This document shows, in pieces, positions 57,301-60,300 of a DNA stretch of 64,000 bases. The DNA is taken from the NCBI GenBank assembly GCA_031422435.1, contig JANPLU010000101.1, forward strand, positions 20,562 to 84,561, in the 5' to 3' direction. Within the stretch, counting starts at the first letter, position 1. Every line of letters begins with the position of its first letter. Made by a program: the position numbers. The DNA is from Acaryochloridaceae cyanobacterium VAR_48_metabat_390. GTDB taxonomy: Bacteria; Cyanobacteriota; Cyanobacteriia; Thermosynechococcales; Thermosynechococcaceae.

Positions 57301-60300
57301 AGAAGTTGAATGCGTTGCTTTTGCTGCTCAACTTCATTCTGCAACCTAGCCAACCGCAAACGCTCCTCTTCTAGCAGTTGGCTAATGACTCCCCCATTAT
57401 TTGGGCTTGCTGTGGAGTGGCATTCCCGATCATGCCCCTCGCGTATCTCTCTATCAATTCTGATCTGCTCAGTCCCTCTTGAACTGCTCTTTCGTCCAGA
57501 CTCTGAATGCTCAGCTCGGTTAGGGAGATGTTTAATCGTTTCTTTGGTTCTTCGTATGAACCGTGCTTTACTCCGGTCTTTCTTTGAGCCATTTCTTTTT
57601 TCCATAGTTGGTTCATACACAAGATATTAACTGAACTCTTACACAACTACCATTACATTATTGCGCATTCTTACACAAGATGTTACCTTTGGGTGGCATC
57701 TTGTGTAAGAAATAATTGTTCTGATGAAACAACTCACCGTTCGTTACCAGCCTGACTCTGTTGAAGCGTTCTATGAAGGAAAAATTCTTTATCGCTGGTC
57801 AAACCCTGTGTTTGCAAGACAGCAGATAGCCGAGATCCAGCTCAAGGGCTGGACAATCATCCGAGAGGGCGTATGACCGACAACTTCTATAGAGATATGT
57901 GCTTGCTGCTCTTTACAGCCCTAGACATGGCTTCAGAAGAAATTGCTACCGACCGCGAAGACCAGGACAGGTTCAGAAGTCTTTACATCATTAAGGCTTC
58001 TACGTTTCTCAAAAGTGATGAGAGCCTTTCCTACCGCGCTCAATGCCTTGAACATCTCAGACAACAACACAGACAGGAGCTATTGAAGAGTGTTTATAAG
58101 ACTTCCAGGCAATCGAATCATCAATCTGGCGAGAGTGAATCAAATCACCTATAGCTTTGACCTAAGTGAAGTCACCATCTTCTGGGCAACGGGTGATTGT
58201 GAACTTCATTTAGTTAAAGGAGATGCGATCGCATCTCCTTTACGCCATAGACAGGCTGAATGACCATCGTAAGCAGCAGCTCATTGACGTGCAGCAGTTC
58301 GTAGACCCCCATGCAAACGCTGAAACGGTTTTGTATGGAAGCGAATCACTTTTCTAAAAACCCGCCTGATGAGTCTTAAATAGACGAAACTTTCCCAACG
58401 TTGGGAAAGTCGCGGGTACCCTTCCAAAAGGTACCAGCCCTAAATGCGATCGCTAATCGGGCTTAGTTGAGAATTGGCCTTGAATTATCGGGCTTTCAAA
58501 ATTCACGGCCTTGAATGCGATCGCGTTTAGTAGAGCTTTGTCGGTTCTCACAGTGAATAGGCCACGCATTAGGCGGGCTTCGGGAGATTCTATGAACCGT
58601 ATGGCAAGGCTTAACCGCCGAGCAAGCTTAAGTTTGGAACCCAACTCCTAGGACAAAAGCGAAAGCAAATATGCGAATTTTGGGACTCGACGTGTGTCGT
58701 GGCTCCGTTGTGGGCTGCTTATTTACAGAACTTCCAGATAACTGCTTAGGCTGGTTTAGAGCCAATAAACAATCCATTGAGAGCTACGAATCGACTCGTG
58801 AAGACGTTGAAAGACTGCTGGCACTGAAGCCAGACATGGTGATTCTAGAACCCACGGGCGTACACTACGCACGGCTTTGGGCAGACCATCTCATTAAAGC
58901 CGGAGTGATTGTGCGTTGGATTGGGCACGCACAACTAAAGTACGAACGCCTTACCCTGCGAATGCCCAATAAGAACGACGCGGCTGATGCCTGTGTGATG
59001 GCCTACTACGGGCACAAACATCTTTTAGAGCCTGAATACTTCCTCAAGTTCGATATTCATGGGGTCGCTGCATCCATGCGATCGCTCGGTTTGCAGCTCA
59101 AACACCTCAACAGTCAAAGCACCATCCTGACCAATCGAATCAGACAGAACCTAGCCCATGAATGGCCTGAAGTTCATCGGTATCAAACCACGGGGCATAA
59201 TGACACAACCCCGCCACTATGGCGCTACATCGCAGGGGGTAAGGTCGCAAAGATAACCAATACCAAATATTCAAAATCTCTGGGCAACACCATCGGCAGT
59301 GGTCTTTCTGAGTTCACCATTGACCACGCGATCGCACTCACTGAAAATGAAGCCCGTCAGATCAAGATTGAAAAGATGCTCTTTCATCTGGTCTACAGCC
59401 CTGACTTCGAGATGTATAACGAAGCCTTTGACCTGTTTGGTTTTGGCTTGCGGGTTCGGGCAATGGTGCTGAGTCATATTTTCCCAATCGAGAGCTTTCT
59501 AGGGGCTGATGATAAGCCTATCGTGCAATACGTTGACTCCACTGGAGTGAGGAAAAAGAGTAAACGCGATCGCAGTTTAGCCGCCTTTAAGCTGGCCTGC
59601 GGGATGGGCATGATTGAGGATAGTTCAGGGGATAAAGAAGTCTTTAAAGCTGGAGGTTCTGCTCTAGTGCGGGTGGCGCTGTGGCAATGGTGCTTTACGC
59701 ATCTAGAAGCCTATGGCGGTAAGAGAGCAACCGATAGCGAAGTCTGTAAAAAGCTGGTGACGTTCCTGCATACGAGAAAGTCTGCTAGTGGTTCACGGAT
59801 TCGGGTTGTACGATCTGCAACGGTGGCGCGGGCAACTGAGATGTTATTTAAGGAACTGGTCAAGAGGATTTAATCCGGTTTTATCATCTGCCCACCAAAA
59901 AGCCACCGTCTCTCAATCGGTGGCTTTTTGGTGAGTTTGGAAGATAGGAAAGGCTATGCAGGCCTGGTAACGATCTACTACAGTGAATTTTGACATCGTT
60001 CTGTTTAGAAGGGGTCGCAGCATCCGCCCGACCTGCCAGCAGCGGTAAGCCCAGCGCACTCACAATGCCGCCTGCGACCCCAGCCATACTCCCCGTCACC
60101 AAAACATCGCGGCGGGAAACACCCTTGCGTCGAGGACGGTCTAGGTCGTAGTTATATTCGTTCATGAATGCGTGTCTCCTAATCCTTAGTAAATCGGCTG
60201 ACTGAGTTTAATTCAGCAGGTTTTAAGCAAGTCCAGCAGTGGCACAAGACAAAACGGTGGACAACTGCTGATGCTCTATAGAGATATACGCAGTTAGCCG

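Follow-up and report, generated by a model that had tools for sequence, protein, structure and literature searches.

A type I hammerhead ribozyme as a candidate processing site before the bridge RNA of IS110-family phage-like elements in cyanobacteria

The window analysed here is a 64,000-nt stretch of contig JANPLU010000101.1 from the Acaryochloridaceae cyanobacterium VAR_48_metabat_390. It carries a phage-like element that splits a host gene and brings together, on its plus strand, a hammerhead ribozyme, a bridge RNA, and a divergent IS110-family recombinase gene. The features of the locus, in window coordinates, are as follows.

47318..47808, minus strand: 3' part of the host ferritin-like gene (PF13668; whole in relatives)
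47800..47814, plus strand: left junction, consisting of left target, GAA core (47806-47808), and right donor, with the GAATCCCCA end motif
47993..55642, minus strand: genes for a YkuD-like protein, a collagen-repeat protein, two paralogues of ~180 aa, a 271-aa family protein, and an 883-aa proline-rich protein
55841..56425, plus strand: short tyrosine recombinase, catalytic domain only
57371..57646, minus strand: ribbon-helix-helix repressor-like gene, divergent from the early operon (PF01402; Arc-like repressor PHROG)
57615..57708, no strand: 11-bp operator-like motif, present three times within the divergent region
57724..58357, plus strand: four short, overlapping ORFs of the early operon, the last stopping just before stem I of the ribozyme
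58360..58417, plus strand: type I hammerhead ribozyme (RF00163, 32.5 bits; folding; covariation over 32 relatives)
58412..58610 (3' end approximate), plus strand: bridge RNA with target-binding and donor-binding loops (folds; its guides predict the element ends)
58415..58435, plus strand: hairpin heading the downstream product, overlapping the 3' strand of stem I (comparison of relatives; folding)
58465..58473, plus strand: left target guide, 8/9 match to attL
58496..58504, plus strand: right target guide, 9/9 complementary to the core and the flank right of attR
58549..58557, plus strand: left donor guide, 8/9 match to attR
58582..58590, plus strand: right donor guide, 7/9 complementary to the element's conserved left end
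58671..59873, plus strand: divergent IS110-family recombinase by sequence, 400 aa (PF01548, 19.7 bits; D7, E60, D103, D106; S319)
59893..59933, plus strand: terminator-like hairpin after the recombinase
59979..59993, plus strand: right junction, consisting of left donor, GAA core (59985-59987), and right target
59988..60165, minus strand: 5' part of the interrupted host gene, Tat-signal-like

The junctions predicted by the guides were found at both ends of the element, with 12,179 bp between the two cores, and the window contains a single copy of the GAATCCCCA end motif. Deleting these 12,179 bp in silico rejoins a single reading frame encoding a ferritin-like protein with a Tat-like signal. 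In addition, an empty site is seen in G689, a genome of the same genus, where the flanks are contiguous and form exactly the predicted 15-bp target. Precise insertion paired with an empty site is one mark of an IS110 bridge system, and the matching of guides to sites, together with the empty site, demonstrates targeting at the GAA core. A compact insertion sequence was considered and ruled out on the basis of the 12,179-bp length and the position of the bridge RNA, 10.6 kb from the left end.

We call the element no more than phage-like because no capsid, portal, packaging, or terminase gene was recognised in it by PHROG, family, and fold searches; its PHROG matches are confined to the collagen repeats, the repressor, the integrase, and the transposase. 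Two proteins of the left arm, of 182 and 271 aa, gave confident structural models (pLDDT 91 and 89, respectively), for which fold searches returned no clear match (best Z 4.7 and 5.5) and all atlas matches were below 0.9; the two could be virion proteins of unknown type. The corresponding protein families have 88 and 298 database matches, respectively, annotated as hypothetical where named. On the plus strand, no promoter-like or terminator-like site was found between the early ORFs and the recombinase gene, and a sigma-70 scan, which performed at chance level, found no promoter before the bridge RNA. Elsewhere in the window, positions 18000-28000 combine low GC (28-34%) with plus-strand ORFs and probably represent a horizontally acquired cluster.

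The genome-wide survey's note had reported a hammerhead directly before the bridge RNA on the same strand, and this has been confirmed: the match to Rfam Hammerhead_1 (RF00163) covers the full model at 32.5 bits (E 5.3e-5 in a 10-kb search), the core and the GUC site are intact, and the ribozyme (58360-58417, plus strand) leads into an RNA running from 58412 on that strand. A second family, RAGATH-1-hammerhead (RF03152), gives 38.6 bits at the same place, and the window hammerhead thus reaches neither gathering score (34 and 56.3 bits, respectively). As read from the sequence, stem I pairs 58360-58365 with 58412-58417 (6 bp), and the core elements CUGAUGA and GAAA occupy 58366-58372 and 58386-58389; stem II is formed by 58373-58376 and 58382-58385 (4 bp), and stem III by 58389-58397 and 58402-58410 (9 bp). 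The predicted cut follows C58411 of the GUC site, between 58411 and 58412, which places it 53 nt before the first guide (start 58465) instead of the roughly 45 nt given originally. The copy has the CUGANGA and GAAA core and the NUH cut site that define type I, while covariation and folding yield the type I layout of three stems with stem I open-ended, and in isolation every stem folds with a pair probability of 0.8-1.0. By sequence and structure, this is a real type I hammerhead. It had also been described as the only match in the genome, which holds for the clade model R1 (built from 32 loci including the window copy), whose single match in the whole 3.7-Mb genome is the window hammerhead, but not for a looser structural detector with four matches, among which the window hammerhead scores 19 and the others 11-12. 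The hairpin at 58415..58435 competes with stem I in the window copy, stem I being displaced in long folds, and its loop does not form with loop II the pseudoknot seen in most relatives (only 2 bp in the window copy).

Four 9-nt guides were read from the two internal loops of the bridge RNA and were then used to search for the junctions that they predict. A two-loop RNA with guides matching target and donor around a shared core, the feature by which IS110 bridge RNAs are recognised, is present at this locus, and in 39 of 50 parsed loci the guides match the right junction with two mismatches or fewer. The distance from the cut to the first guide ranges from 31 to 74 nt (median 53; 38 loci), and in the first locus set the predicted cut lies 187-295 nt upstream of the recombinase start. 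Since bridge RNA and recombinase message would still be connected after cleavage, the ribozyme would make only the 5' end of the bridge RNA, not its 3' end. At many loci (e.g., L006, L022, and L014), a CACC or CUCC motif is seen ~10-25 nt before the recombinase start and, by eye, appears to covary with GGGUG or GGGAG in the right donor guide; the motif may pair with that guide near the ribosome-binding site.

The recombinase itself is divergent. Its 19.7 bits against PF01548 fall below the cut-off of 29, PF02371 gives no match, and the gene is single-copy in the genome. Across 36 sequences, E60, D103, D106, and S319 are invariant and D7 is nearly so, and a profile of the recombinase's relatives matches the structures of ISCro4 (E 6e-7) and IS621, with the serine stretch aligning weakly. 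Judged from these signatures, the protein is a divergent IS110-family recombinase with a DEDD RuvC-like domain and a presumptive catalytic serine. No relative was returned by IMG/VR scans with two recombinase alignments or by a search of phage records.

A protein search across 401 genomes of the phylum yielded 60 matches, spread over 40 of the genomes. Of these, 57 were taken (three short fragments were omitted), and the removal of six loci at contig ends or 5'-truncated and of one identical duplicate left 50 scorable loci. The hammerhead core is present in 47 of the 50, and in 13 of 15 scorable loci among 18 new ones of a second set, as counted with a looser core pattern that was written after the data had been seen and was adopted because real variants whose stems contain bulges had escaped a strict detector; 11 of the 13 second-set positives are near-copies of doubtful activity in which stem II is enlarged and atypical. 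Recurrence in most members of the clade, which had been proposed from 12 of 18 loci, is hereby strengthened, with the proviso that the carrier counts reflect one origin rather than independent events, because all carriers belong to one clade. GUC occupies the cut site in 40 of the 47 carriers. R1 confirmed 12 of 13 held-out clade carriers, missing L208, and at the unscorable locus L026 the ribozyme lies across a contig break, in L244. Six loci, half of them without the core and half with a variant core, gave no match to any ribozyme family in an Rfam search, which thus missed the variant cores as well. Variants with extra hairpins between the core and stem II are seen in L322-L326, L329-L334, L208, L008, and L029.

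That the stems differ in sequence yet remain paired, another early claim, is borne out by covariation: 96.8% of cells are paired and compensatory change is seen at 14 of 19 pairs, in a set of 32 loci chosen for having stems and in which relatedness inflates the test. Loop II and the loop of the hairpin after the cut form a pseudoknot averaging 4.8 bp, versus 3.6 +/- 0.15 bp for swapped partners (0 of 2000 swaps as high as the real pairing; 43 distinct pairs), and it reaches at least 5 bp in 31 of 43 distinct relatives. The 5' hairpin was counted in all 56 of 56 loci, a figure that lacks a control and is not used as evidence.

Five scorable loci (L170, L182, L200, L321, and L328) are without the core. 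A quick tree of 60 proteins, from which four short proteins and most second-set near-copies were left out, places them on separate branches, and this implies one origin and five losses. In L170, both ends match the element's own guides, and the ribozyme may be dispensable because this locus, having none, keeps both ends and matching guides. The core has been deleted in L182 and L328, where a stem III-like hairpin and the next hairpin appear to be retained, and these remnants would fit a structural role for the 5' hairpin. In 39 of 47 loci, an upstream reading frame of at least 60 codons ends close to the ribozyme core (-20 to +16), and in 17 of these 39 the stop codon is the UGA of the core itself.

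The elements of the relatives measure 8-18 kb and share a gene order of leftward structural-looking genes, short tyrosine recombinase, leftward regulators, rightward early operon, ribozyme, bridge RNA, recombinase, and right end. The same or a related short tyrosine recombinase is found in the other delimited elements; in L178, L182, and L186 a left-arm gene block is inverted relative to other elements, and the short tyrosine recombinase may be an invertase. The left end, alone or with the right, was found in 13 of 20 loci having at least 14 kb upstream (the other seven were unparsed or without a match). In these 13 loci it is always GAATCCCCA, occurs once per locus, and is preceded by bases fitting the element's own left target guide, a half of the guide test that is partly circular because the 13 were selected on a left-guide match. 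Among 12 two-ended elements, target guides agree with their own sites at 9-10 of the 10 variable positions, versus a mean of 2.8 for other elements. The reading-frame test for an empty site is convincing for some other elements only, e.g., L187. In L033, an 8.8-kb Nostoc contig of element genes with no terminal repeat, a joined donor site lies in the interior (oriented position ~4752), which suggests an excised circle or a tandem copy. Element and gene ends overlap in eleven loci (L170, L174, L175, L176, L177, L183, L185, L019, L021, L034, and L035), where the left donor end starts at the recombinase stop codon. Finally, L170 (genome G002) carries a TIR-domain gene as cargo at its left element end, possibly for anti-phage defence.

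Ordinary IS110 loci of the same phylum have no hammerhead (0 of 30). Conversely, a hammerhead-first scan of the 401 cyanobacterial genomes, with a pattern that was derived from the recombinase clade and favours it, found 29 sites in 22 genomes, compared with nine matches for the reversed pattern. A recombinase lies downstream of 26 of the 29 (nine shared with the first set), and one more has a bridge RNA before the contig ends. The remaining two are without bridge RNA or recombinase, one of them being in the early operon of a Mu-like element (L270). At the other, L271, a good hammerhead borders a plasmid-like insert and is followed by neither a bridge RNA nor a recombinase; this may be a decayed element. 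Among the matches listed from a scan of all phyla, at least 13 non-cyanobacterial loci have valid stems, mostly in Bacillota and some in multiple copies, and none of 13 such loci has a recombinase or bridge RNA. The Clostridia contigs L054, L072, and L081 each show 5-7 pattern matches on one strand, 0.3-1.8 kb apart.

Elements were also sought through the gene for the 271-aa protein, which gave 69 matches in 58 of the 401 genomes, of which 40 were examined. The ribozyme is present in both of the two marker-gene elements with a full recombinase and, by two methods, in none of the 38 without one, a control set in which some members are short contigs or remnants (27 have at least ~12 kb on the relevant side) and in which a very divergent ribozyme could escape detection. 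In three of the 38, a tyrosine integrase occupies the recombinase slot, and the ribozyme with its cassette also occurs in loci where the 271-aa marker was not found. As far as comparative sequence data can tell, the ribozyme tracks the recombination cassette rather than the body of the element.

We consider it probable that the hammerhead is the processing site of a cassette composed of ribozyme, bridge RNA, IS110-family recombinase, and left donor end. Its position, its conservation, and the controls favour self-cleavage as the event that sets the 5' end of the bridge RNA, and the proposal is to that extent partly supported; the cassette would be best explained as the integrase module of cyanobacterial phage-like elements of 8-18 kb. 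The bridge RNA of IS621 is made from a circle-junction promoter (PMC11208160), and excision of IS621 requires read-through transcription (PMC13626964). In the window, 10.6 kb and a set of leftward genes separate the bridge RNA from the donor junction, and therefore a junction promoter of the IS621 type cannot drive it; the hammerhead would stand in for that promoter. Specifically, a rightward early operon beside the repressor would be read through its short ORFs into the cassette, where the ribozyme would fold during transcription and, given its intact core, cut after GUC. In most relatives, the loop II pseudoknot deduced from covariation would aid folding or cutting, and the short stem I would then let go of the upstream message. 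The product would begin with a 5'-OH at 58412 and comprise the hairpin, the two guide loops, and the recombinase ORF, in keeping with the 5'-OH borne by the downstream piece of a self-cleaving ribozyme (PMC8782182). The likely gain would be a defined, decay-resistant 5' end clear of upstream ribosomes. RNA ends with a 5'-OH would be expected to resist RNases E and J. Recombinase and bridge RNA would then join donor and target at the GAA core, by a catalysis presumed from IS621.

The chief competitor, which we hold to be unlikely but worth serious weight, is that an ordinary phage processing site between genes came to adjoin the cassette at the origin of the clade, with a cut that serves either the early message upstream or that of the recombinase, and a bridge RNA that works just as well uncut. 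Prophage hammerheads are known to flank single genes and to cut polycistronic RNAs (PMC3088659), and the same type splits genes in the multi-copy Bacillota arrays and in the Mu-like early operon of L270. In 38 of 38 loci, the target-binding loop folds alike whether the upstream piece is included or left off, and five losses of the ribozyme have been tolerated. Against these points, none of the 38 recombinase-less related elements has the ribozyme, which accompanies the cassette even where the 271-aa marker was not found, and the guide spacing has been held across recombinases only ~30-40% identical to that of the window. The survey's own caveat, that the link might reflect a phage transcript boundary, is accordingly weakened by the recombinase-less relatives and sustained by the Bacillota and Mu-like loci.

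Cleavage could instead act as a gate, with the uncut precursor misfolding the donor loop, or a terminating upstream ribosome controlling the folding, such that recombination is on under some conditions only. In the window copy, 58361-58371 can pair over 11 bp, as a helix, with the donor loop, whose folding drops from 0.84 to 0.10 with the real leader, versus 0.74 with shuffled leaders, and the stops near the core in 39 of 47 loci (17 at its UGA) would suit ribosomal control, but these may equally be compact gene packing. Over 38 loci the donor loop folds at 0.54 with real and 0.54 with shuffled leaders, and on this basis a conserved switch between leader and donor loop was rejected; a gate is quite improbable. 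More improbable still, to the point of being nearly dismissed, is that the window motif no longer cuts and persists as a structural 5' cap or a relic: it does fall below both Rfam cut-offs, its pseudoknot is absent, and its stem I is displaced in long folds, but the core bases are all intact, stems I to III measure 6, 4, and 9 bp, and the motif is almost sure to fold locally. At equilibrium, the stem I probability of full-length precursors exceeds 0.5 in only 1 of 38 loci, as calculated by a program that models neither the pseudoknot nor folding during transcription.

Returning to the hammerhead as a processing site, a bolder extension, for which we would put the chances at about one in three, is that the elements are an undescribed family of small temperate cyanobacterial viruses that use a retargetable RNA-guided recombinase as integrase and couple it to induction through a ribozyme-matured guide RNA. 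Lifting of the repressor would allow the early operon to be read, and the hammerhead, which the stop codon of the last early gene often overlaps, would cut out a stable guide RNA for excision. If true, this would be a natural ribozyme-matured guide RNA coupling phage induction to RNA-guided recombination. Short of that, bacterial hammerheads, whose functions are described as unproven (PMC3088659), would gain a concrete and testable job, and large elements would gain the way they need of making a bridge RNA without a circle-junction promoter. The clade is also a pointer to a family of phage-like elements of cyanobacteria, the main proteins of which have no family match in the searched libraries. 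The recombinases of the clade, retargeted in nature, have inserted elements of 8-18 kb with precision; with their GAA core and predicted self-processing guide, they may be of use for genome editing.

Each part of the arrangement has a precedent, namely hammerheads in prophages, phages integrated by IS110-family enzymes, and large IS110 elements, and the combination was not found in the literature searched; in that literature, covered mostly at the level of titles and abstracts, no paper links a natural ribozyme to a bridge RNA. The one paper known to hold all three terms (bioRxiv 10.64898/2026.10.21.760802) does treat them separately in the passages concerned, as had been noted. It clustered loci having both PF01548 and PF02371, whereas the window recombinase has neither of these required domains at cut-off.

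Like the clade, IS621 and ISCro4 (PMC11208160; PMC13626964; PDB 8wt6, 9t56) possess a DEDD RuvC-like domain with a conserved serine and a two-loop RNA before the ORF, with four guides matching target and donor around a shared core. In contrast, IS621 is 1.3 kb long rather than 8-18 kb, and its bridge RNA is driven from the junction, from which that of the clade is 7-16 kb distant; the hammerhead at the bridge RNA 5' end, the GAA core, the sub-cut-off PF01548, and the missing PF02371 further set the clade apart. The pseudoknotted prophage hammerheads of Perreault et al. 2011 (PMC3088659) are likewise of type I, with a pseudoknot between stems I and II, and lie between genes of phage operons, many of them near integrase genes. 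That account gives them no proven function and, in its available passages, mentions neither cyanobacteria nor transposases; in the clade, by comparison, the downstream product starts with a guide RNA at a fixed spacing, with one copy per element.

Filamentous phages with an IS110-family integrase include Nf of Neisseria and Zuza8, Zuza27, and phiOH16 of Thermus (PMC11437467), in which the gene likewise sits at one end of the provirus and is presumed to act in its integration and excision. No inovirus gene was recognised in the present element, and neither a ribozyme nor a guide RNA appears in the corresponding passages of PMC11437467. Finally, large cargo-bearing IS110 elements (bioRxiv 10.64898/2026.08.14.744561, in the main text of which the words ribozyme, cyanobact-, and promoter are absent) also extend far beyond 1.5 kb and have guides that match their flanks. 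Those elements grow by cargo capture, whereas in the cyanobacterial clade the gene order is fixed and phage-like and includes a repressor switch.
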